Positions 1,464 to 62,458 of a stretch of 64,000 bases of DNA are shown in pieces. This DNA comes from an uncultured bacterium (GTDB lineage Bacteria; Patescibacteriota; Minisyncoccia; UBA6257; 2-01-FULL-56-20), in contig CAWJQC010000004.1 of assembly GCA_963844965.1 (NCBI GenBank), positions 41,609 to 105,608 of the forward strand, in the 5' to 3' direction. The notes below the pieces were generated by a model, which was not told the origin of the DNA, did no database searches, and was given only the letters and a program-made list of their open reading frames with translations. The position numbers were made by a program, and so were the translations under genes. Every line of letters begins with the position of its first letter. Position 1 is the first letter of the stretch.

Positions 1464-1495
1464 AAAAACGCCCCGTTCATCGGGGTATTTTTGTT
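1464..1495. terminator. bidirectional intrinsic terminator
   Basis: aaaaaCGCCCCGttcatCGGGGtattttt: a GC stem flanked by an A-run and a T-run, lying between the convergent mgtC-like gene and rnpB. Confidence 0.7.
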
Positions 1496-1903
1496 GCTGG
1501 CAATCCGTAAGCCGGATTCTGTCGCGCCTGCCTGTCGGCAGACGATGCGATCATTTATCTGGGCCCTTGATTGCTCGCGGGCTCAAGCGGCACTTCCACC
1601 TCATCGGCGGACACGGCCTTGCACCCAGTAAGGATTTAGCCGTTTCATCTCCACTTTTTTATCCCTATGGCGGAGCTGGACCGACTAGCTTGGGATTGGG
1701 TCCGTCCGACTTTTTCAAATCGGACCGTTTCTGCTCGCACCTCTATTCTTACGAACGACGGCTGTTAGCCGCTACTATTTTATCCCTCCCCAGTTTTGCC
1801 AGTAATGTCACTGGCAAAACTGGGGAGGGATGGTGTCCGGACTTTCCTCCCTACATTTTCTAGAATTTTAAGAAAATGTAGGGCGATCGCCTAGATTGCC
1901 AGC
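1496..1903 (-). ncRNA. rnpB: RNase P RNA (bacterial type)
   Basis: The minus strand carries GGGAGGAAAGTCCGGACACC (CR-I) near the 5' end and ACAGAATCCGGCTTACGGATTGCCAGC (CR-V/P4 region) at the 3' end. The 5' GCTGGCAATC pairs with the 3' GATTGCCAGC to form P1. Confidence 0.9.
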
Positions 1904-7626: not shown

Positions 7627-7724
7627 TTGCGCTCCGACCATGGTCGGAGCGCAATTTTCAAATCACAATTTCCAATTTTCAAACCATTACTGAATTACCA
7701 CTAATTACAACTGAATTACATCTA

Positions 7725-10540: not shown

Positions 10541-10600
10541 TGAGCCGAGGAGAGGAGTCGAACCTCCAACCTACGGTTTATCCCGATTTTGCAAAATTTG
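10541..10600 (-). pseudogene. tRNA-like 3' fragment (variable region, T-arm, acceptor 3' strand) lacking an anticodon arm
   Basis: The minus strand reads ...GTAGGTTGGAGGTTCGACTCCTCTCCTCGGCTCA: T-stem GGAGG/CCTCT, T-loop TTCGACT, acceptor 3' strand CCTCGGC. No D or anticodon arm can be drawn from the adjacent sequence. Confidence 0.55.
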
Positions 10601-10605
10601 CCTTG

Positions 10606-10677
10606 AGCCGGCGGTCGGATTTGAACCGACGACCTGCTGTTTACAAAACAGCTGCTCTGCCGCTGAGCTACGCCGGC
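10606..10677 (-). tRNA. tRNA-Thr (anticodon TGT)
   Basis: The minus strand reads GCCGGCGTAGCTCAGCGGCAGAGCAGCTGTTTTGTAAACAGCAGGTCGTCGGTTCAAATCCGACCGCCGGCT, with anticodon loop TTTGTAA. It is flanked on both sides by the palindrome ATTTTGCAAAA. Confidence 0.9.
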
Positions 10678-10792
10678 AATTTTTTTGCAAAATCGCGGAC
10701 TCGCGATATTGTAAGCAAATCGTAGATTTGCACAATATCGGAGCAAAACCGTTGCTCCCTGCCCCGCACCGAGCTTTGCTCTGGTGCGCGGG

Positions 10793-10812
10793 TGCCATTG
10801 AACTACCTCGAC
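10793..10812 (-). other. tRNA-like 5' fragment (acceptor 5' strand plus D-loop motif)
   Basis: The minus strand reads GTCGAGGTAGTTCAATGGCA. GTCGAGG pairs 7 of 7 (one U-G) with the CCTCGGC of the 3' fragment at 10544..10550. TAGTTCAATGG is a standard D-arm/loop motif, but the D-stem 3' strand is missing. Confidence 0.45.
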
Positions 10813-41436: not shown

Positions 41437-43541
41437 TTACCGTTTTTTGCCTTCGATAATCAACTGCGCAATGTTCTGCGGCACTGGCTCATAATGGTCA
41501 AATTCCATCGTGAACGCTCCCCTGCCTTGCGTCATGGAACGCAACTCGGTCGCGTAGCCGAACATTTCCGCGAGCGGAACTTTGGCGTCAATCACTTTCA
41601 CGTTGGGCCGGTCGGAAATTTCCTCAATCCTGCCGCGCTTGGAGTTCAAGTTGCCGCTCACCTCGCCCAAAAATTCTATCGGGATGATAACCTGAAGCTT
41701 CATTATCGGCTCCAATATGACCGGCTTCGCGCGCTTCGCCGCTTCCTGCAGGGCGATGGAGCCAGCAATTTTGAAAGCCGCCTCCGACGAGTCAACTTCA
41801 TGGAAAGAGCCGTCATAGAGCGAAACTTCAAGGTCGGTCATCGGGTAGTGGGCAACGACCCCCTTACTCAATGCTTCCACCACACCTTTTTCCACCGCCG
41901 GGATGAATTCGTTCGGAATGATCCCTCCCTGATATCGTCTATGAAAACAAATCCCTTGCCGCGCTCCAAGGACTTCACGCGCAGCCAGACATGTCCGTAT
42001 TGTCCGCGGCCGCCGGATTGCCTGATATATTTGCCTTCCGCCTCCGCTTCGCCCATAATCGTTTCTTTATAGGCAACCTGCGGCCGCCCCACCGAACCCT
42101 CAACACCGAACTCCCGCTTCATCCTGTCAACAATAATTTCCAGGTGCAACTCGCCCATGCCAGAAATAATCGTCTCGCCAGTTTCCAGGTCGCCCGCCAC
42201 GCGGAAAGTCGGGTCTTCTTCCGCCAAGCGGTGCAGGGCAATGCTCATTTTTTCCTGGTCGGCTTTCGTCTTCGGCTCAATGCGAATGCCGATCACCGGC
42301 TCGGGGAATATGATCTTCTCAAGCACTATCGGCGCGTCGGGACTGCAAAGCGTGTCGCCGGTCGTCGTATTCTTCAAACCGACGATCGCCGCGATATCTC
42401 CGGCATGCACTTCCTCCATTTCTTCGCGGTGGTTGGCGTGCATCCGCACCACGCGGCCGACACGTTCCTGCTGGTCCTTCTTGGAATTCAAAACGTACGT
42501 GCCGCGCTTCAAAACGCCGGAATAATTCCGGAAATAGGTTAAAGTGCCGACGTACGGGTCTGTCGCAACCTTGAAAGCCAGCGCCGAGAACGGCTCTTCG
42601 TCCTTGGGGTGCCGCACGATATCGGCGCCGCTCTTCGGGTCAATGCCCTTAACCGGAGGAAGGTCCGTCGGCGCGGGCAAATATTCCACAACCGAGTCAA
42701 GCATAAATTGCACGCCTTTGTTTTTCAGGGCCGAACCGCAAAGCACCGGCACAATTTTGTTGGCAATAACGGCTTTGCGCAAAACGCGGCGCAAATCTTC
42801 AATGTCAAGCTCAGTACCATCCAAATACTTGGTCATCAAGGCATCGTCATTGTCCACAATGCGTTCCACAAGTTCATGCCGCGCCTTCTTCACGTGCACT
42901 TTCATATTTTCCGGCATCGGAATTTCTGTAATCTTTTCGCCATGTTCACCCTCCGAGCCGTACGCCTTTTCGGTTAAGAGGTCTATCATTCCCACGAATT
43001 CACCCTCAAGGCCGATGTTCAACTGCAAAGGCAGTGCGTTCGGCGTGAGCCGTTCTTTGATTGACTGCAAACTTTTTTCAAAGCTCGCACCCAAGCGGTC
43101 AAGTTTGTTAATAAAGCAAATCCGCGGCACGTGGTACTCATCGGCATAGCGCCAGTTCGTTTCCGACTGCGGCTCAACACCTGCGACGCCATCAAAGACG
43201 ACAACCGCGCCGTCCAAAACGCGGAGCGAACGCTTCACCTCCACCGTAAAGTCAATGTGCCCCGGCGTGTCAATCAAATTTATCATATGCTCAAATTTTT
43301 TGTCGCCCTTGCGGTAAGTCGGAATCCAGAACGCCGTCGTTGCGGCGGAAGTAATCGTAATTCCCCTCTCACGTTCCTGCTCCATCCAATCCATCACCGT
43401 GTCGCCCGTGTGCACCTCGCCGATTTTGTGACTGACGCCCGTATAAAAAAGCACCCGTTCGCTCACGGTGGTTTTGCCGGCATCTATATGGGCGATGATG
43501 CCGATGTTACGGACCTTCTCGACAGGATACATTCTAGGCAT
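41437..43541 (-). CDS. fusA: elongation factor G, split by one frameshift near 41920-41933
   Basis: [35 protein letters not shown]. At ..FIDDIR the frame slips; adding one G in atcaGGGaGGGatc restores [30 protein letters not shown], which joins the two track ORFs. Confidence 0.9.
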
Positions 43542-43695
43542 TGAATTTGAATAAACTTATTTTAATTCTCGCGCATATTGATGCGGGAAAGGGGTCGGGA
43601 AAACGGGAGTTTTCCCGTATAGGAAAAAGGCCGGAGGCCGAGTTAAAAACCGAGAGGTTTTTAAGGAGCGGGTTGCTGTATAGCGACTCGCGACC

Positions 43696-43755
43696 GTCTA
43701 TATGCGCGATTATTCCTATATTTCTTACTTTTTCTACTGGATATTGTCGCGGCAT
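43696..43755 (-). pseudogene. orphan copy of the first 20 codons of fusA
   Basis: [20 protein letters not shown] versus the resident [20 protein letters not shown]. The amino acids are nearly identical but almost every third codon position differs. It lies 8 nt after the stop of the inserted ORF and ~155 nt upstream of the real fusA start. Confidence 0.7.
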
Positions 43756-46121: not shown

Positions 46122-46221
46122 ATCAACAATAATATCCGAAAACCGCGGTCTTTGCCAATTAAGAAAAAACAAATTAAAATGAGCATGTCGCCCTCGTGGT
46201 GAAACTTGCCCTCCCACCTTT

Positions 46222-46294
46222 GTCCCTGTAGCTCAACGGATAGAGCGTGTGGCTTCGAACCACAAGGTTGCAGGTTCAAATCCTGCCAGGGACG
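46222..46294 (+). tRNA. tRNA-Arg (anticodon TCG)
   Basis: GTCCCTGTAGCTCAACGGATAGAGCGTGTGGCTTCGAACCACAAGGTTGCAGGTTCAAATCCTGCCAGGGACG, with loop CTTCGAA. It is bracketed by the perfect inverted repeat CCCTCCCACCTTTG / CAAAGGTGGGAGGG. Confidence 0.9.
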
Positions 46295-46321
46295 CAAAGG
46301 TGGGAGGGTGAAGATATCATA

Positions 46322-46367
46322 TGTGGCTTCGAACCACAGGTTCCAGGTTCGAGTCCTGGCGAGGGCA
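46322..46367 (+). pseudogene. 3' fragment of a different tRNA-Arg(TCG) (anticodon arm to acceptor 3' strand)
   Basis: TGTGGCTTCGAACCACA is identical to the anticodon arm of the neighbouring gene. It is followed by a different T-arm (CCAGGTTCGAGTCCTGG) and acceptor strand (CGAGGGC). There is no 5' acceptor or D-arm. Confidence 0.7.
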
Positions 46368-46464
46368 CACACAACATTTCGTATCGCGGCATCGTGGGGG
46401 CCGACGCTCTAGCGCGACCCCGAGAGGCCTACCGATACGGAATATCGTCCTCCTTATTTCTCTA

Positions 46465-46832
46465 TTAAGAGCCGGCAAAAATACTTTTGATAAGGCTTGT
46501 AATGCCGCCTGCTATCAGCACGATCACAAAACCGACTGCCGCATACGTAAGGGTCTTCTTCCCTTTCGAAAATTTTTCAGGATCGCCAGCCGCCGTCATC
46601 ATTTGAAACCCGCCGACAAGCACCATTATACTTGTGAGCGGCGCTGCAATATCGTAAAAAAGAAATCCCGCCACACTATTCGCGACGGACACCAAGCTGC
46701 CCCCCCATTCGTACAATTTGGATCGAACGGATTAAAAAGTTGGTTGGGAGGGCACGCGGCAAAAGCTAACTTCGCGACGGTTAAGGCGCTGACTGTTATT
46801 AAAATCTTTGTTGTGCGGCGGATAATATGCAT
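46465..46832 (-). CDS. small two-TM pilin-like protein (TrbC/VirB2-like T4SS-pilin type seen in CPR), frameshifted in a C7/G7 run at ~46697-46705
   Basis: A signal-like N-terminus (MHIIRRTTKILITVSALTVAKLAFA) is in one frame. SLVSVANSVAGFLFYDIAAPLTSIMVLVGGFQMMTAAGDPEKFSKGKKTLTYAAVGFVIVLIAGGI is in the next. The family assignment is from memory of the pattern. Confidence 0.45.
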
Positions 46833-46883
46833 ATGGATTATTATAGCATACGAGATAGCGTGGCAGAAGCCCATTTTGTTTAG

Positions 46884-48221
46884 CTATTTCTGCAAGCTCA
46901 GAATTTTATTCCTGAACGTCAACTTACTCTTGAAGCAAGATAGCAATTCGCGTTTCTCGACCGTGCTGCCCTTTTTGAGAAGATATTTTGCGTACGTTTT
47001 AAGGTCAATTTCTTTAGTGGCCGCTTTCGATCCTTCTCCCAAGACATCGTTCGCGAATTTGCGATATCGTTCCATCTCGTCTTCGAATTTCTTCTGCATC
47101 CCAATCTCACTGATATCCATCTCGTCAATGATAGCGAGAAGTTGAGCGATCAATTCCTCTTCGCGAATGTATCCGCACTTGCAATCCTTATCTTTCGAGC
47201 GTGAGCATCCATAGTACACGTACCGCGCCGTCGTTCCATCCTTGTGCGCCTTATATTTCTCGCACGCACTGATGCCCGATCCGCATAGGCCGCACGAGAT
47301 CAGTTTCGTAAACGAAAATTCCTTTATCTCCGACCTGATGACAAAATCTCGGTGCAGCTGCTCCTGTACTTTATCGAACAGCTCCCGCGAAATGATTGCT
47401 TCGTGCTTGCCGCTGTACCAGTTACCGCTCTTCAGTGGATACTCAAAGATGCCGCAGTAAAATGGATTTTTGAGGATGATATAAATATTGGATAACGAAA
47501 GCACTTTCCCATTCTTTGTTCTGAATTTGATTTCCGACTTCAGCCAATGATAAAGCTTCCGGCCCGACCATTGTTCGTCGGCGACTTTCTGGAGCATTTG
47601 CTTGATGACGGGCGCTCGCAGGGGATCAATGATAACTTCACAAGGACGGTCGGTGCTCTTCTCGTTAAGATACCCTGTCGGTGCGATAGACGGACGCAAA
47701 CCTTGTTCGCACCGCATCCGTAATCCGCGCTTCACGTTTTCCGATTTGTTATCATTCTCAAGTTTCGCTTGGCTGCACAAAATCATCAACATGAATTTCT
47801 CGCTCGGCGAGTTCGTGAATTTCTGGCTGAAGGTTCTGATCTCGATAAGTAATTTTTGATCCATCAAGTCCACCAAGCCGCCAAGGTCGCCCGCGTTGCG
47901 GCTCAAGCGATCCGGCGCCCATGTAAGGATACCGTTGAATTCGCCGGAACGAATATCAATAAGCAACTCGTTAAAAATTTTTCGCTGGCCGACAGCTTTT
48001 GCGGAATGGCTTTCCTTTCTAACTTCGGCGATCTCAAGGTTATCGCGCTCGGCGATTTTCAGCATCTCCTTTATCTGACTATCAATGGAAAGCACTTGCT
48101 GTTCCTCGCTCTCCGTACTTTTCCTCGCATAGAGGCAGTATTTTATTTTTATCGCTTCGGCCTTTGTCGCAGAAACGCCCGACTGATCCCAGCCCTTTGG
48201 TATATTTGTTATTTTCTCCAT
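46884..48221 (-). CDS. large serine recombinase (resolvase domain, recombinase domain, zinc ribbon)
   Basis: YCLYARKSTESEEQQVLSIDSQ (catalytic Ser region), LTWAPDRLSRN, later CGLCGSGISAC...YYGCSR. About 445 aa from MEKITNIPKGW. Confidence 0.85.
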   Translation of the reverse strand: MEKITNIPKGWDQSGVSATKAEAIKIKYCLYARKSTESEEQQVLSIDSQIKEMLKIAERDNLEIAEVRKESHSAKAVGQRKIFNELLIDIRSGEFNGILTWAPDRLSRNAGDLGGLVDLMDQKLLIEIRTFSQKFTNSPSEKFMLMILCSQAKLENDNKSENVKRGLRMRCEQGLRPSIAPTGYLNEKSTDRPCEVIIDPLRAPVIKQMLQKVADEQWSGRKLYHWLKSEIKFRTKNGKVLSLSNIYIILKNPFYCGIFEYPLKSGNWYSGKHEAIISRELFDKVQEQLHRDFVIRSEIKEFSFTKLISCGLCGSGISACEKYKAHKDGTTARYVYYGCSRSKDKDCKCGYIREEELIAQLLAIIDEMDISEIGMQKKFEDEMERYRKFANDVLGEGSKAATKEIDLKTYAKYLLKKGSTVEKRELLSCFKSKLTFRNKILSLQK

Positions 48222-48377
48222 ACCTAAGGGATGCCGCAACGGCGGAAGGAGTCCAGAGCATCCTTGTCGGTAACTCAAAACTCGATATCAGGCGACGAAG
48301 GGGCAAAGAAGGCAAGCAGAGTGATTTCCCCAGCCACCCTCTTTAAGACCATTTATAAACGAGCTATAATAATTCTA

Positions 48378-49918
48378 ATGTTCAGTACCAATGCGCGACG
48401 GGTAATGTGTGTCGTTGCAGGTTTGATTTTGACTTCGCTCGCTTGGATCGGATGCGCGAATTATTTCAACTGGTACGCCGACACAATCGGTCCCGTGGCC
48501 TGGTTTGGCACCCTGTTCCTATTTGCCGCAGCAGGAGTCGGCGCCGGTCTGCTCTTCGAAAAATCGACCAGGGCTCATTATCAGTCTGCAATGACGGCAA
48601 ATCCCCAACTTAAGGAACGAATGGAAACTACTCTCGGAAGGCGCCTCAAGTTTGGCTACGTGCTTGCCGGGCTTTATGTCGCCTATAGGCTTTTCGGATA
48701 TTATCTGTTTTTTGTTCTCGGCTTCTCTTTATCTCCAGCGGCCCATCTTCAACTGATTCTTTCGGCGGTCGTTGAGGCGGTTGTCGCCTTAGTGTGTTTG
48801 TTGCTTTATTGGGAGCGCGGAGAAGATGCCAGTACGGCGAATATAAAAAAGCATTTGCTTGTCTATGTTATTTTCTTCTTCGTTCTCGCAGTGGTTGACG
48901 GTGTCGCACTGCTTGTCTTGAAGCCCGCTTCGGCGGTAGTTCAAACACCCGCAACTCTCGAATCCGCGCTCGAAGCATTTTCCGCCGAGGAATTTTCCGG
49001 GGCAGCAGCAAAAGGGGCGCAAGCGCTACAAGTAAAAGATATGGTCGGGATAGCTTCGGCGCTCCAGAAGATCAATGCTCATTTTAACCAATCATTAACC
49101 AGCGCGGATCTTTATGACATGCGGTACACCATTAATTGGGGCTTGAATGAAGCAATTGCATATTACCAATTCGAGGCCGACGATCAATCCATTTACGCTC
49201 TTCAGCTTACCGAAAATCTTGCGACCAGCAATATTGCCGAGAGTTATTATTCGTTTCCGGCAGGTAGCACCTCCGCTCTAACCGGACAGAGGTATCTCTT
49301 CGTGGCAAACGGATTCAAACGCGGCCGAAACTTTGTTCCTTGATACTGCAGGTGCTTATCTCAACCTACCTATGCAATCTCCGATTATGAACGAAGACCT
49401 TTATTATCCTTTAACGGCATCTGCTCCTTCGTGGACAGTGTCCGTCCTCTTTACGAGCACTACGGAGGAGGGACAACAGCAAGTTCACGCTCTATAATAC
49501 CTTTGACGCGAATACCGAGCGGGTGACGACGAGTACTTACGTTCCCTCCGGAAACTATTTGCCCTTGTCACCACAATCGCCATCCGTGTCGATGAACGTT
49601 GCTCCGCCTCCCTCAAATTCCTCCCTGAAAATAATTTCTCCTGCCAACGGACAGAAATTGAAGCAGGGGTCAACATACACGATTAGCTGGCAGTCGTCTG
49701 GTGATTTCAATTTTGTCGTCGGGAATATCGTCGCTCCCGTTCCGGGCGAAGGGGGTGTAGGAATATTCCAAGCCCCCGCGACTTCAAGCCGCTATAGCTG
49801 GACCGTGCCGACCGGCTTCCCACCTGGGATGTATAAACTGGGGCTTGCGGGCAGCGATCAAGATTTTGTGAATCATAATTTTGCCTCGTCCAGTGTTTCA
49901 ATCTACATCATTCCGTAG
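48378..49918 (+). CDS. membrane-anchored surface protein, probably one ~510-aa gene broken by two frameshifts (~49320-49345 and ~49480-49495)
   Basis: TM-rich N-terminal ORF (48378..49343), then the open frame ..SNAAETLFLDTAGAYLNLPMQSP..TSTTEEGQQQ, then KFTLYNTFDANTERVTTSTYVP... to 49918. The end carries an Ig-like YTISWQSSG motif. Confidence 0.4.
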
Positions 49919-49930
49919 TAAAACTTATTT

Positions 49931-50378
49931 AAGATGAGACGCGGCCTTGGGACACCCTTTTAGTGCCTCATTTGTCTCATTTGCATAAAAAAGCCTTATT
50001 TTATGGGCATCGATTTTTCGGAATGAGACACTGCTTTGTATAAATCGGACACGTCCAGAATGGCATTTCTGTGTCCGATTTGTCCGATTTGCCTCCAAAA
50101 TGTTACACACCACAAAGTGCAAAAGTTGTGTAACATTTGTAACATTTTGAGGAAAAGCGGGGGGTTGGAACATGGGAATGGGACACGAAAAATCGACCTC
50201 TTGTGTCCCATTTGTTCCATTTTGTAGAAATGAGCCCTGCTGCGTTACGTTTGCCGCGTTACATTCCGAACGCTCAGAAATCTTTGATTTATCTACCTAA
50301 CAGGACAGCTCCCCAAAAAAGTGCCGCCCTCTCAACTTTTCACATCGCGTTACATTTGTTACATGTTACATTTGATCC
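49931..50378. repeat. array of related hairpin / direct-doublet units with a covarying central triplet (GTGT-NNN-ATTTGT-NNN-ATTT(T)G)
   Basis: Units: AAATCGGACAC-18nt-GTGTCCGATTTGTCCGATTTG (50042-50091); AAAATGTTACAC-19nt-GTGTAACATTTGTAACATTTTG (50097-50149); AATGGGACAC-16nt-GTGTCCCATTTGTTCCATTTTG (50176-50224). CTC and TAC variants sit at 49963-50031 and 50242-50378. Confidence 0.7.
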
Positions 50379-50580
50379 CTCCGAAAACCGCGACCGTGAG
50401 CCTTCCAAGGGAAATTTGGGGTCGTCCTCAAAAACCCTTATACTGATTGCACAGGGAAAGTCCGCATCCGCGAGGGGGCACAACAAAACTATATCTTTTT
50501 AGTTACCGCACGGTTGTCGTCGAGACGCGTGAAAAACAAAAAAGGAGCTTGCAGAGCTCCTCTATCTAACTCAACCTAAC

Positions 50581-52648: not shown

Positions 52649-52880
52649 AAGCCACCTCCTTTTCCAGATTCAACCAACTGCTTCCACTCTACCAAAAAGC
52701 GGGAAAAAATCCAGAACCTGTCCAAGTCGTTGCGGAAAGACGTTTTTGGATATAAAATAATAAAACCGGCCGCGAAGCCCGACATAATCAGCGCCATTCG
52801 GCTTAATAAAAATCCGCCCATAGCTCCCACCTTCGCCGAGGCTTCGGCGGGCAAGCAACTGGCCCCGCACCAAAATTTAT

Positions 52881-52953
52881 CCGCGCGTAGCTCAACTGGC
52901 AGAGCAGCTCCCTCTTAAGGAGACGGTTGCAGGTTCGACTCCTGCCGCGCGGA
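52881..52953 (+). tRNA. tRNA-Lys (anticodon CTT)
   Basis: CCGCGCGTAGCTCAACTGGCAGAGCAGCTCCCTCTTAAGGAGACGGTTGCAGGTTCGACTCCTGCCGCGCGGA, with loop CTCTTAA. It is bracketed by the inverted repeat CCCGCACCAAAATTTAT / ATAAATTTGGTGCGGG. Confidence 0.88.
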
Positions 52954-53132
52954 CTGGAAAAATTAAGGATAAATTTGGTGCGGGTTAGACGCCGCAGCTC
53001 TCCTCTTACAACCGCGTAGCGAGGCGAGGATAAAAATCGCCAATTTTTATTTTCGCCGAGCGAGCGGGTGGCGAAACAGGTTTTCGCAGGAAAAGGTTCC
53101 AGGTTCAAGTCCCTGCTTGCCAGCAGGCAGGC

Positions 53133-53182
53133 AGGTGGGCGGACACAGAATCGAGGATCTCCGGCAGCTCACCTCTTTTTTA
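53133..53182 (+). terminator. intrinsic terminator closing the tRNA-Lys transcription unit
   Basis: AGGTGGGCggacacagaatcgaggatctccggcaGCTCACCTCTTTTTTAT. Confidence 0.55.
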
Positions 53183-53623: not shown

Positions 53624-56305
53624 ATGAGTGGGATAAAAATAAATCTTTCTCTCAGCGAAATCCCAGGCATCGGCCCGCGTTTTCTGGAACGGCTGGGAAA
53701 ACTCGGCATAAAAACCGTCCGTGATCTCATTTATCATTTTCCGGCCCGCTACGAGGATTTCTCCCAGATATACAAAATTTCCGACGTTGAGCCGGGGGAA
53801 CAGGTAACAATACGTGGCGTTGTTGAAGACACCAAACTGCGGCGGACTTGGAGAAAACACATGACAATCGCCGAAGCCCTGATCCGCGACGATTCCGGAA
53901 CGATACGCGCCATCTGGTTCAACCAACCATATGTTTTGAACACTCTGCGGGTCGGGCGCACGGCGAATTTCGCAGGCAAAATATCCATATCGGACGAGGA
54001 CGAAATTTATTTGAGCCACCCGGCTTATGAAATCGTCGGCAGTCGGGAGTCGGGAACGGAGAAGCAAGAAACAAAACATACAGCGCGGCTCGTCCCCATT
54101 TATCCCGAAACGCGCGGCCTCACATCCAAGGGGTTGAGATATCTGATCCAGCCAATTCTGAAAAACAGCGAACAGCTGGAGGAATGGCTGCCGCCGGAAG
54201 TTCTGCGCGAAAATAATTTTCCCGAAATAAACCTTGCGCTCAGATCCATACACTTCCCCGAAAAAACCGAGGATGCTCTTGTCGCGAAAAAACGCTTCAC
54301 TTTTGAAAACCTGTTCCTGCTGCAACTCGCCAATCTTGAACAAAAATTGAAACTCGCGCGCGAAAAAGCGCCAGTGATCAAAACCGACATAGAACACCTG
54401 AAAAAAATGATCTCGGAACTGCCATACGAACTCACGTTTTCGCAAAAGAAATCATTGTGGGAAATCATCCAGGACCTCGCCAAAAAACAGCCGATGAACC
54501 GCCTGCTCCAGGGCGACGTGGGCTCCGGCAAGACGGTTGTCGCGGCGCTCGCCGCGGTAATTACCGCGGAAAACGGGCTGCAGACCGCGTTTATGGCGCC
54601 AACCGAGGTTCTCGCGAGACAGCATTTTGAAACATTGAAAAAATTATTCGCCGGAATTCCCTCGATCCATCAACCCGTAGTTGGGCTTCTCACGTCAAGC
54701 GAAGCAAAAATCCTCTACGCGACAGACCTTGAATCAAAAATCAAAAAACCGGAGTTGCAGGAAAAAATAAAAAACGGCGAGGTAAAAATAGCCATCGGCA
54801 CGCACGCTTTGATACAAAAAGACGTGGCGTTCGGCAATCTTGCCTTTATCATCATTGACGAACAGCATAGATTCGGCGTCTCACAACGAGCTGCGCTCGT
54901 TCGCGGACAGACGCAGAATGATAATACGCGGACAGACGCTGAACAACTACTATACGAAAAAACGACGTTTGAGATAAGAAAAAGTCTGTTTGAGGTGAGA
55001 AAACAACTGGGCCTTGGTCATAAAGAAGTGGTGTATCAGAAAGCATTGGAGGAGGAGTTCAAGAAATCCGGTGTAATATTTGAGAAAGAAAAGAAAATTC
55101 CTGTCGTTTATAACAAGAAAAAGATTGGCGTTTATCAACCGGATTTTGTCATAGATAATGAAGTAATTTTGGAACTTAAGGCTCTTCCCTTTATCGGCGG
55201 CATCGAAAAAAAACAGCTGTGGAATTATTTGAGGGGTTCGGATTACAAACTCGCGCTTATGGCAAACTTTGGACCGGAAAGATTATCCATAGAGCGGGTA
55301 GTATACGATATTGCGCGGAGTCGGCGGCTGTCAGCGTCCGGTCAGCAACTGTCCGCGCCTATCCCCCACCTCCTCTCAATGTCCGCCACGCCAATCCCAC
55401 GCACGCTCATGCTCACCGTCTTCGGCGATTTGGATATATCGCTCATCACCGAACTTCCCGCCGGCAGAAAAAATATCGTAACAAAAATAATCCCCCCACG
55501 GGGCAGGAGCGAAGCCTATGAATTCATCCGCGGCGAAGTGAGGGCCAGCCGGCAGGTTTTTGTCATCTGCCCCCGCATTGACAAACCGCAGACAGGCGCA
55601 GACCACACGCAGACAAACGCAGACAAGACACAGACAGACGCAGACAATTTTCAGCGGCTGTCTGCGTCAAGTCAGCGACTGTCCGCGTTAAGTCCACGTA
55701 AGTCCGCGTTAGTGTGGGAAGTAAGATCCGTGAAAGAAGAATTTGAAAAATTATCCAAGAAAATTTTTCCGGATTTGCGCGTCGCCATGCTCCACGGCCA
55801 GCTCAAGCCAAAAGAAAAAGCGGGTATCATGAAGGACTTCCGCAACTACAAAATAGATATTCTCGTTTCAACTTCCGTCGTGGAAGTTGGCGTGGACGTG
55901 CCGAACGCAACAATAATGATGATTGAAGGCGCCGATCGCTTCGGGCTGGCTCAGATCTACCAATTCCGCGGACGCGTGGGGCGCGGCGAACACCAATCCT
56001 ATTGCTTCCTGTTCACGGATTCGTCCGCCAAAACTACGCGCGAGCGGCTGCAGGCCGTCCTTGAAGCCAAGAACGGCTTTGAGCTCGCCGAGAAGGACCT
56101 GAAGATCCGCGGTCCCGGCGAATTCCTCGGCACGGCGCAGACCGGCTTTCCCGACACGGCGATGAGCGGCCTCATGAACCCGGAGCTCGTGAAAGCAAGC
56201 CGCGAAGCGGCGGCAAAAATCGTCCAAAAAGATCCGCTTTTCAAAAATTATCCGCTCCTGAAAACCAAATTAAACGAGTTCCGGAAGGAAATCCACTTGG
56301 AGTAG
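53624..56305 (+). CDS. recG: ATP-dependent DNA helicase RecG carrying two in-frame insertions
   Basis: Wedge/OB N-terminus; motif I GDVGSGKT; motif II [11 protein letters not shown]; motif III [9 protein letters not shown]; later [15 protein letters not shown] and QFRGRVGRG. 893 aa against ~680-700 expected. The excess is accounted for by 54908-55357 and 55589-55708. Confidence 0.92.
   Translation: [893 protein letters not shown]
54908..55357 (+). other. 450-nt in-frame insertion in recG encoding a GxxExxY-family (PD-(D/E)XK-like) domain flanked by inverted word repeats
   Basis: [87 protein letters not shown] matches the GxxExxY pattern. The flanks are cgcggacagacgcagaat..tacgcggacagacgctga and the reverse-complement-like ctgtcagcgtccg..ctgtccgcgc. 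Confidence 0.75.
55589..55708 (+). repeat. 120-nt in-frame palindromic insertion in recG (solo copy of the same word-repeat arms)
   Basis: cagacaggcgcagaccacacgcagacaaacgcagacaagacacagacagacgcagaca attttca gcggctgtctgcgtcaagtcagcgactgtccgcg. It translates as [40 protein letters not shown]. Confidence 0.7.
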
Positions 56306-59959: not shown

Positions 59960-60178
59960 AACGACCTCCTCAAAAAGATTTAATTTAATTGCGCAAAGCA
60001 ATTTGGCTACTCCCAAGAATAACCAAATCGCTTTGCGCAAGCAATATATTCATTTTTCAAGATACTTGCCTATCTATGCTAATTATAGCACAAATAAACA
60101 ACCTGTCAACCCCCACCTTTTTCCGAAAAGGTGGGGGTCAAGTGGCCGCGGCGGCTGACCCGCTGAAGCGACGATACC

Positions 60179-60438
60179 CTACAACTCATAAATCTCATCT
60201 CGCTTGCCTATTTTGAGTATATAAATTGCGCCATTTCTAACGTCAAATACCAACCTATAATCGCCCACGCGAAATCTGAACTCCCCGCCGCGGTTGTCAG
60301 CCAAACGCTTGGCAAACCTCAACGGATTATCCTCTGACGCATAAATGCGCATCTTCTTTGCTTTGCGATGCGCACTTGAACTTCTCTCGGCAGGGATTCC
60401 AACTGCTTAGCCGCCCGCTTGGCATAGAAAATCTTCGT
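60179..60438 (-). pseudogene. decayed copy of the RelE/ParE toxin gene
   Basis: About 97% identical by eye to 62204..62458, but the start ATG is mutated to ACG (cgt at 60436-60438) and a 5-nt insertion (ctttgctttgcg versus cttcgcg) shifts the frame. Confidence 0.7.
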
Positions 60439-61916: not shown

Positions 61917-62203
61917 ACATTTAAGATAATCCCAAAGCATGTAGCTGTCAACTCCTCTCAACTCCCGAGAAAACCCAGATGGCGAGCTTCTCCCTGCCTC
62001 GATAGGGTAGAAAAACAACTCAAACAGCCCAACGAAATTCGTTGGGCTGGATTTTTTTAACCAATGGCGTCACCCGCCGTTGAATTCCTTAATATCTTTT
62101 GGCGAACACCGTTTAAACTACCTGTCAACCCCCACCTTTTTTCCGAAAAGGCGGGGGTCAAGCGGCCGCGGCGGCTGACCCGCTGAGCTGAAGCGACGAT
62201 ACC

Positions 62204-62458
62204 CTACAACTCATAAATCTCATCTCGCTTGCCTATTTTGAGTATATAAATTGCGCCATTTCTAACGTCAAATACCAACCTATAATCGCCCACGCGAAAT
62301 CTGAACTCCCCGCCGCGGTTATCAGCCAAACGCTTGGCAAACCTCAACGGATTATCCTCTGACGCATAAAAGCGCATCTTCTTCGCGATGCGCATTTGAA
62401 CTTCTCTCGGCAGGGATTCCAACCGCTTAGCCGCCCGCTTGGCATAGAAAATCTTCAT
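62204..62458 (-). CDS. RelE/ParE-family toxin (intact copy)
   Basis: 84 aa; ...GGEFRFRVGDYRLVFDVRNGAIYILKIGKRDEIYEL is the typical RelE/ParE C-terminal pattern. Its ATG overlaps the antitoxin stop (TAATG). Confidence 0.75.
   Translation of the reverse strand: MKIFYAKRAAKRLESLPREVQMRIAKKMRFYASEDNPLRFAKRLADNRGGEFRFRVGDYRLVFDVRNGAIYILKIGKRDEIYEL

Follow-up and report, generated by a model that had tools for sequence, protein, structure and literature searches.

A short locus in the genome of an uncultured bacterium of the Patescibacteriota raises the question of why a complete tRNA gene should be flanked by a perfect inverted repeat and followed at once by a piece of a second tRNA gene. The locus lies in a 64,000-nucleotide (nt) stretch of GenBank assembly GCA_963844965.1 (contig CAWJQC010000004.1, positions 41,609 to 105,608 of the forward strand), the whole of which is called the window here, and coordinates refer to the window. 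We consider it probable that an older tRNA-Arg(UCG) gene was interrupted by a promoter-less cassette in which a complete tRNA-Arg(UCG) gene stands between two GC-clamped arms, and that the locus is one case of a recurrent replacement of tRNA genes by cognate genes in Patescibacteria. The locus contains the following features, all on the plus strand:

46152–46180, sigma-70-like promoter: TTGCCA, a 17-nt spacer and TAAAAT, with 10 of 12 consensus matches
46190–46208, 5′ part of the outer tRNA-Arg(UCG): acceptor strand GCCCTCG, U8 and G9, D-stem strand GTGA and start of the D loop AACTTG, defined by minimum free energy (MFE) pairing and by relatives
46209–46221, left cassette arm; the perfect 14-nt repeat is 46209–46222 and takes in G1 of the inner tRNA
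46222–46294, inner complete tRNA-Arg(UCG), with no encoded CCA, identified by ARAGORN and Rfam
46295–46308, right cassette arm CAAAGGTGGGAGGG, with homologues in the 3′ flanks of tRNA-Arg units from six other genomes
46309–46312, junction nucleotides TGAA, of uncertain assignment, from a reading of the sequence; 2-nt difference from the intact gene
46313–46367, 3′ part of the outer tRNA-Arg(UCG): end of the D loop GATA, D-stem strand TCAT, anticodon arm, T arm, acceptor strand CGAGGGC and discriminator A

A complete tRNA-Arg gene within an inverted repeat

The repeat CCCTCCCACCTTTG occupies 46209–46222, its exact reverse complement lies at 46295–46308, and the window holds no further copies; with up to two mismatches allowed, about 0.35 matches anywhere would be expected by chance. 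The enclosed gene was called by ARAGORN as Arg(tcg) at 46222–46294/5, and it scores 74.5 bits with the Rfam tRNA model, against a threshold of 29, with the full model covered. With a full cloverleaf, an above-threshold score and a readable anticodon, it has the properties by which a bacterial tRNA would be predicted to function, and its acceptor stem is self-consistent and not a hybrid of host and element sequence. A preliminary description of this DNA had reported the tRNA-Arg within its perfect 14-nt inverted repeat, as we found it, and had proposed that the repeat extends the acceptor stem by 14 perfect base pairs (bp). The proposed extension exists as an alternative register of 14 bp, but in the cloverleaf register the left arm includes G1 and the arm helix consists of 13 bp with a 2-nt bulge (G73 and C46295).

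Two halves of an older tRNA-Arg gene around the inner gene

The 17-nt anticodon arm TGTGGCTTCGAACCACA is present in exactly two copies, at 46248–46264 and 46322–46338, where none would be expected by chance. The second copy begins 27 nt past the inner tRNA and belongs to a downstream piece that the preliminary description had recognized as a fragment of another tRNA-Arg(UCG) allele. We agree with this assignment, given that the piece has a different T arm of its own and ends in the acceptor strand CGAGGGC and an A (46360–46367), which cannot pair with GTCCCTG. The piece is longer than had been described: Rfam aligns 46307–46359 to positions 9–63 of the tRNA model (30.2 bits), and a D-arm strand is thus included. 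The matching 5′ half, for which a search had been suggested, was found 13 nt 5′ of the repeat, where GCCCTCG (46190–46196) is followed by TG, GTGA and AACTTG. These segments have the spacing that a tRNA requires, namely a 7-nt acceptor strand, 2 nt and a 4-nt D-stem strand.

In the MFE fold, 46190–46208 pairs with 46360–46366 and 46317–46320, and in the fold of the 185-nt region (−88.4 kcal/mol, z = −6.4), the outer acceptor and D stems enclose the arm helix and the inner cloverleaf. When 46190–46208 and 46313–46366 were joined in silico, ARAGORN called the product as tRNA-Arg(tcg). The joined gene together with A46367 equals the intact tRNA-Arg of L014, the closest syntenic relative (loci and contigs from other sources are designated by L and a number), except for two extra D-loop bases (CT); the first 15 nt of the 5′ part are identical to the L014 gene, and the 55 nt of 46313–46367 are identical at every position to the intact genes of both L014 and L010. 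The difference from the L010 gene is one base greater than that from the L014 gene, and intact genes of the outer allele are also present in L013 and L054. Because of the spacing, the fold, the ARAGORN call of the joined sequence and the match to the intact genes of relatives, the downstream fragment and the upstream 19 nt are taken as the two parts of one older tRNA-Arg(UCG) gene. The insert separating them measures about 104 nt (46209–46312), lies in the D-arm/D-loop region and comprises an arm, a complete tRNA of another allele, an arm and TGAA.

The preliminary description had taken the fragment as a footprint of integrase-mediated insertion at an attachment (att) site, that is, as a 3′ segment of a host tRNA displaced by an integrase-borne element. 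A large serine recombinase element that targets tRNA 3′ ends does abut the piece, and in some relatives (L015, L018 and L022), nothing but 3′ remnants follows the intact tRNA. We nevertheless judge the att footprint to be decidedly unlikely. The 27 nt between the tRNA and the piece leave no element between them, and the matching 5′ half at 46190–46208 lies on the far side of the resident tRNA. The piece has only the anticodon arm in common with the intact gene and does not repeat it from a crossover to the gene end, since the T arm and acceptor strand differ. In addition, a self-consistent inner acceptor stem is not the hybrid that such an insertion would leave, and the ends of the recombinase element map elsewhere, to 46368 and 50481. 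No second copy of the 17-nt core was found further downstream, including at 52.9–53.2 kb, which is the site of a separate tRNA-Lys nest described below.

Promoter position and cassette junctions

The −10 hexamer of the sigma-70-like promoter ends 9 nt 5′ of the outer G1 (46190), and a promoter scan of the locus found no comparable site between the outer and inner 5′ ends. Only 32 nt separate the outer G1 from the inner G1, so there is no room for a separate inner promoter. We call the cassette of about 104 nt promoter-less because the sole promoter-like site precedes the outer gene. Around the cassette, the hexamer GGTGAA at 46198–46203 is repeated at 46307–46312, where it overlaps the right arm, and the insertion point is ambiguous by a few nucleotides.

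Nests at other tRNA genes of the window

Two further loci of the window contain an intact tRNA gene nested in a cognate gene:

10541–10812, minus strand, tRNA-Thr(UGU) nest, with the intact tRNA at 10605–10677 and the arms TCCGCGATTTTGCAAAA and TTTTGCAAAATCGGGA
52814–53177, tRNA-Lys(CUU) nest, with the inner tRNA at 52881–52953 and the arms at 52863–52880 and 52968–52984

The outer tRNA-Thr(UGU) is split between anticodon-loop positions 35 and 36 (TTTG^TAA) by a 163-nt unit holding the intact tRNA, and its D loop contains a 31-nt hairpin (10762–10792). The joined halves, minus the cassette and the hairpin, are called as tRNA-Thr(tgt), and a promoter-like site is found only upstream of the outer gene. 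At the second nest, a decayed outer tRNA-Lys spanning 52814–53143 holds the inner tRNA-Lys in its D loop. This outer gene has hairpin insertions and, in the anticodon loop, an insert of about 83 nt that is conserved with L020; in L020, the two alleles are nested in the reverse order. The tRNA-Trp and tRNA-Thr(GGU) genes of the window show no nesting. The recurrence of flanking repeats, which the preliminary description had proposed to survey at other tRNAs, is thus observed at tRNA-Lys and tRNA-Thr(UGU) in the window and also at the homologous loci of other genomes.

Nests in other Patescibacteria

Syntenic loci of other Patescibacteria were obtained via the site-2 protease that adjoins the locus. 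Automated local alignment of tRNAs with their flanks was confounded by neighbouring tRNAs and by the divergence of the layers, and the nests were parsed by eye, with the halves joined in silico as a check. Rfam at permissive thresholds, applied to this locus and six related loci, returned the intact tRNAs and one partial match and missed the short fragments.

As read from these sequences, the nested layout recurs in the syntenic loci of at least eight other Patescibacteria. L020 contains a multi-layer stack, in which CTTC^GAA (35/36) is the split point of both layer 2 and layer 3; the halves of these layers are ordered in mirror fashion about the intact gene, and either layer gives a tRNA-Arg(tcg) again when its halves are joined. 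Nesting is also seen in L014, L023 and L003 (a Saccharibacteria genome), and L015, L018, L022 and L055 have kept only 3′ arms and outer 3′ remnants. The insertion sites are loops, either the D loop or the anticodon loop at 35/36, and the junctions of the 35/36 insertions show neither a duplication nor a duplicated core. All insertions have the same orientation as the outer gene, which is in every case a cognate one. Outer copies with deletions or hairpin insertions were found in L014, L023, L003 and the tRNA-Lys nest of the window, and the outer copies are therefore dispensable. In L055/L056, the T arm of the intact tRNA-Arg recurs in inverted form 3′ of the gene (positions 2200–2350), together with two perfect palindromes of 20–26 bp (CCTGCCTGCCGGCAGGCAGG) and a further tRNA 3′ fragment.

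The arms have a common organization, with a C-rich start, a GGG(A) end and AT-rich sequence beside the tRNA; they are perfect over 14 nt at the tRNA-Arg of the window and imperfect, with a length of 9–17 nt, in the other units. The 3′ arms can be aligned across seven units from six genomes (CAAAGG-YRGG-MGGGG), and these homologous arms precede outer halves with different anticodon stems (GCTCG, CCAAG, CCACA and ACCAG). Since dead DNA cannot diverge and yet keep complementary halves, different live alleles are likely to have received separate insertions. The un-nested genes of L010 and L013 have no arms, and 'empty' arm-arm palindromes occur in the nests of L020, L023 and L055.

Searches beyond the syntenic loci were also performed. 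The anticodon arm and T arm used as a query against species-representative genomes gave 12 loci, among which only L010 has an intact outer allele and L003 proved to be nested. A scan of metagenomes with the D-arm/anticodon signature of the outer gene gave one intact gene and no second nested copy. The anticodon arm and T arm query had no match among viral contigs. Matches of the arm motif in viral sequences (29) all lie in unrelated DNA without an adjacent tRNA, and we took them as chance matches.

Are the nests artefacts or debris?

A nest could in principle have been created by misassembly of a tRNA locus that varies between the strains of a metagenome bin. All six Logan short-read contigs of one relative that carry protein P0037 (L057–L062, from different runs) end inside or just before the tRNA-Arg beside the protease gene, which suggests a repeat-rich or strain-variable locus. 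The same nests are nevertheless present in independent assemblies and samples (L020/L021, L015/L016, L018/L019 and L055/L056), and an ordered mirror symmetry with complementary halves is unlike a tangled assembly graph. An artefact can hardly be credited as the explanation.

The nests could also be local debris of repeated breakage and error-prone repair, by fold-back priming, template switching and palindrome formation, with no mobile cassette involved. This would account for the perfect palindromes and inverted tRNA pieces within nests, such as the inverted T arm CCGGCAGGAGTCGAAC of L055, and for the hairpins of L023 and L014, which consist of a tRNA 5′ fragment and its own inverted copy; moreover, no transposase or donor copy was found, the transposase search being confined to this region. 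The composition of the nests fits poorly with debris: the inner and outer genes are different alleles and not local duplicates, and the same arm pair is found with different tRNAs at the same 35/36 position in different outer alleles of different genomes. The insertions are also uniformly co-oriented and restore a complete cognate tRNA. On balance, we regard local debris as an unlikely origin.

Is the outer tRNA still functional?

The preliminary description had allowed that the fragment might be part of a longer functional RNA. It does belong to something longer, a split tRNA gene, but we read this gene as a relic. If the outer tRNA were still functional, the cassette would be intron-like and cut out by RNase P, RNase Z or RNase III, and the halves would either be ligated (GCCCUCG...CGAGGGCA) or pair into a two-piece tRNA through the acceptor stem, the D stem and the arm helix. 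In favour of this, the halves show no damage and match functional genes elsewhere exactly, the arms bring them together, and layers 2 and 3 of L020 are also nearly intact. The GC-rich complementary flanks also resemble those of the split tRNAs of Nanoarchaeum.

Several observations make a functional outer tRNA very improbable. The fold contains no bulge-helix-bulge; it is a continuous helix with one single-base bulge and one 2-nt bulge and without a 3-4-3 motif. No match to a group I intron or ribozyme was obtained with Rfam, either at the gathering threshold or at E-values up to 10. Excision of exactly the arm-tRNA-arm unit would leave a D loop without GG, and genes split in the anticodon loop (tRNA-Thr and L020) could not decode without ligation. 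The outer copies of L014, L023, L003 and the tRNA-Lys nest are decayed, and the inner tRNA has the same anticodon, which makes the outer one unneeded. To our knowledge, no splicing endonuclease is known in bacteria, nor is a protein-dependent tRNA splicing pathway.

By analogy with the decayed copies at other loci, the outer halves in the window are probably a recently disabled relic. They are identical to live genes of genomes whose intergenic DNA can no longer be aligned, and therefore the interruption is likely to be recent.

The adjacent serine recombinase element

The following features lie immediately 3′ of the outer gene:

46368–50481, minus strand, 4.1-kb integrative element with a large serine recombinase, both ends of which are conserved in L053 and L054 beside different host DNA
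46465–46716, open reading frame (ORF) resembling a type IV secretion system (T4SS) pilin
46884–48221, recombinase ORF of 445 amino acids (aa) with the Pfam domains PF00239, PF07508 and PF13408 (Resolvase, Recombinase and zinc-ribbon)
50455–50481, plus strand, right end of the element, which is a pseudo tRNA 3′ end (..GTCCGCATCCGCGAGGGGGCAC) and contains a repeat of the GGGCACA..ACAA core of 46362–46376

The element also encodes a 370-aa membrane protein and a 131-aa Ig-like protein, and its recombinase has thousands of homologues in this phylum with 65–91% identity. The left end (CACACAACATTTCGTATCGC...) immediately follows a tRNA discriminator (it begins at 46368 here); the tRNA is the outer tRNA-Arg in the window, tRNA-Lys(CTT) in L054 and tRNA-Lys(TTT) in L053. 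At the right end (...GTCCGCATCCGYGAGGGGGCAC), three-way alignments show that the window, L053 and L054 diverge beyond ..GGGGGCAC. The two ends have the short core GGGCACA..ACAA in common, and the attP of the element was reconstructed as ..GAGGGGGCAC/ACACAACATTTCG... The site is unoccupied in L014, L015, L020 and L022, where no recombinase separates tRNA-Arg from the next conserved genes. Towards its right end, the element has about 550 nt of non-coding DNA (49934–50481) that are conserved at 75–88% identity in L053 and L054, and this region contains repeated GTTACATTT/GTAACATTT motifs, which may be binding sites of the recombinase or an accessory protein.

From these features, 46368–50481 appears to be a conventional integrative element that uses tRNA 3′ ends. 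The preliminary description had linked the fragment to the nearby serine recombinase, and this link stands insofar as the element uses the tRNA 3′ end as its attachment site. The element is separate from the cassette, and it explains neither the inner tRNA nor the arms. It integrated at the 3′ end of the outer gene, either later or earlier than the cassette.

A model for the cassette

The sequences and their comparison show the nested architecture and its recurrence, where the promoter lies, and that outer copies have decayed elsewhere. In the model that we propose for this arrangement, the whole unit would be transcribed from the promoter of the old gene as one transcript, judging from sequence only. 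The arms would form a helix of 13–17 bp, coaxial with the inner acceptor stem, that insulates the inner cloverleaf from the homologous outer sequence. RNase P and a 3′ endonuclease, possibly after a cut of the long helix by RNase III, would release the inner tRNA, and this tRNA would now do the decoding. Over time, arm-tRNA-arm cassettes would insert cleanly into loops of the cognate resident gene, replace it and leave stacked, nested dead halves.

Three routes of insertion may be envisaged. Our first preference, which is a guess, is a structure-directed event at the DNA level, in which the hairpin-shaped unit would enter single-stranded hairpin loops and afterwards spread between lineages via recombination across the conserved tRNA halves. 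The second would be homing triggered by an endonuclease, for which the conserved tRNA halves could serve as homology arms once a nested allele exists. The third would be RNA-mediated: the hairpin of a pre-tRNA, once processed, would be joined into a tRNA loop that had been cleaved, and would then be copied back to DNA. Three other candidates were set aside: crossover by a tyrosine or serine recombinase in the loop, as there is no duplicated core at the junctions; ligation at restriction sites (TTCGAA), as the site is not regenerated there; and fold-back priming from the acceptor stem, as the repeat stops after 14–18 nt.

Some points weigh against the cassette model. The junction is inexact: the surplus bases are either CT on the left or AA/TGAA on the right. 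The 6-nt direct repeat GGTGAA could be a target duplication. Arm-like palindromes are also found away from tRNAs, at 60109, 62128, 44203 and 1782 of the window and in L015, and the arms may be of tRNA-independent origin. The outer halves in the window are intact apart from the interruption, and their status as a relic comes from other loci. No enzyme, donor form or excised intermediate was identified, and the scans of viral collections gave nothing relevant; transcription and processing have been deduced from the sequence alone. The sample comprised about a dozen loci, which were picked by synteny.

Comparison with known systems

Fragments of tRNA genes that derive from tRNA-targeting integrative elements, such as the att sites of phages and integrative and conjugative elements (ICEs), have been reviewed (PMC9897764). 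These elements resemble the cassette in that a mobile insertion enters a tRNA gene, the tRNA supply is kept and partial copies lie beside an intact one. However, the cassette carries a whole tRNA and not just the segment from the crossover to the gene end, and both old halves stay, mirror-nested around the new gene. It also has inverted-repeat ends, lacks a direct-repeat core and measures about 100 nt without genes.

Group I introns of 184–894 bp are found in tRNA anticodon loops of Patescibacteria, including the 35/36 site (PMC13011429). They are similar to the cassettes in their clean insertion into a loop, their phylum, their spread between lineages and their use of the 35/36 site, as seen in the tRNA-Thr cassette and the tRNA-Arg cassettes of L020 and L014. 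In contrast, the insert here has no Rfam intron match and is a sequence of about 100 nt carrying a tRNA, and splicing does not restore the interrupted gene, which decays.

In archaea, split, multi-intron and permuted tRNA genes are joined at bulge-helix-bulge motifs (PMC3978253, PMC4090602). The separation of the halves in the DNA, the GC-rich complementary flanks and the non-canonical sites such as the D arm are common to these genes and the nests. Unlike the archaeal genes, the nests are bacterial and without a bulge-helix-bulge, and the interruption is a complete cognate tRNA. The bacterial context of the host is evident from the class A RNase P RNA and from rpsL-rpsG-fusA, which have Patescibacteria homologues.

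Small palindromic mobile repeats include the REP/REPIN elements, miniature inverted-repeat transposable elements (MITEs) and the Rickettsia palindromic elements. Short inverted-repeat units, 'empty' arm-arm copies and copies in both RNA genes and intergenic DNA are features that these repeats have in common with the cassettes, which differ from them in their tRNA cargo, cognate tRNA target, isotype-specific arms and low copy number.

Each of these four systems shares features with the cassettes and seems to fail at least one defining test, and we found no published description of a complete tRNA nested in a bacterial cognate gene in the limited full-text literature that was searched. More tentatively, and with some doubt, we consider it possible that the arm-tRNA-arm units are an undescribed class of selfish elements in Patescibacteria, namely promoter-less cassettes of about 100 nt that home into the loop of a cognate tRNA gene.

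Other features of the window

Several further palindromes and insertions were observed in the window. The tRNA-Trp gene is preceded at its 5′ end, without a gap, by a 28-bp perfect palindrome (TTGCGCTCCGACCATGGTCGGAGCGCAA, 7627–7654). A repeat of about 120 nt is present twice (60100–60235 and 62119–62240); it starts with the palindrome ACCCCCACCTTTTT..AAAAGGTGGGGGT, a member of the sequence family to which the tRNA-Arg arms belong. The RNase P RNA gene (1493–1902, minus strand; Rfam score 100.2 against a threshold of 100) holds a 50-nt near-perfect palindrome (1782–1831, ATCCCTCCCCAGTTTTGCC...) with arms that resemble the tRNA cassette arms.

The fusA ORF (41868–43755, minus strand) encodes 557 aa, compared with 701–711 aa in relatives, and its first 20 codons are present again some 200 nt upstream, with hairpin-rich DNA between the copies; an insertion that duplicated the 5′ end, or a frameshift, could be the cause. 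RecG (53624–56305) contains an in-frame insertion of about 100 aa, and the records of RecG in the relatives place a PDDEXK_3 nuclease domain (PF13366) midway through the helicase. In L014 and L020, free-standing genes for PDDEXK_3 are present between rpsG and fusA.

Implications

Nested tRNA genes have practical consequences for annotation and assembly. Standard tRNA finders give only the innermost gene or spurious partial matches, and several short-read contigs break at nested loci. The stacks are a bacterial counterpart of the archaeal split-tRNA puzzle and offer a concrete system for the origin of disrupted tRNA genes, and their dead layers would be a record of the tRNA alleles formerly used by a lineage.

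If the cassettes are mobile, single-copy tRNA genes of minimal genomes would be replaced horizontally by insertion into the gene itself, a route of turnover that is neither allelic exchange nor the att mechanism of integrases. If they are in addition selfish, a cassette would destroy a gene and yet supply an equivalent tRNA from the old promoter, making itself unlosable ('addiction by replacement'), and its turnover between lineages would leave behind the nested stacks of dead tRNA halves.

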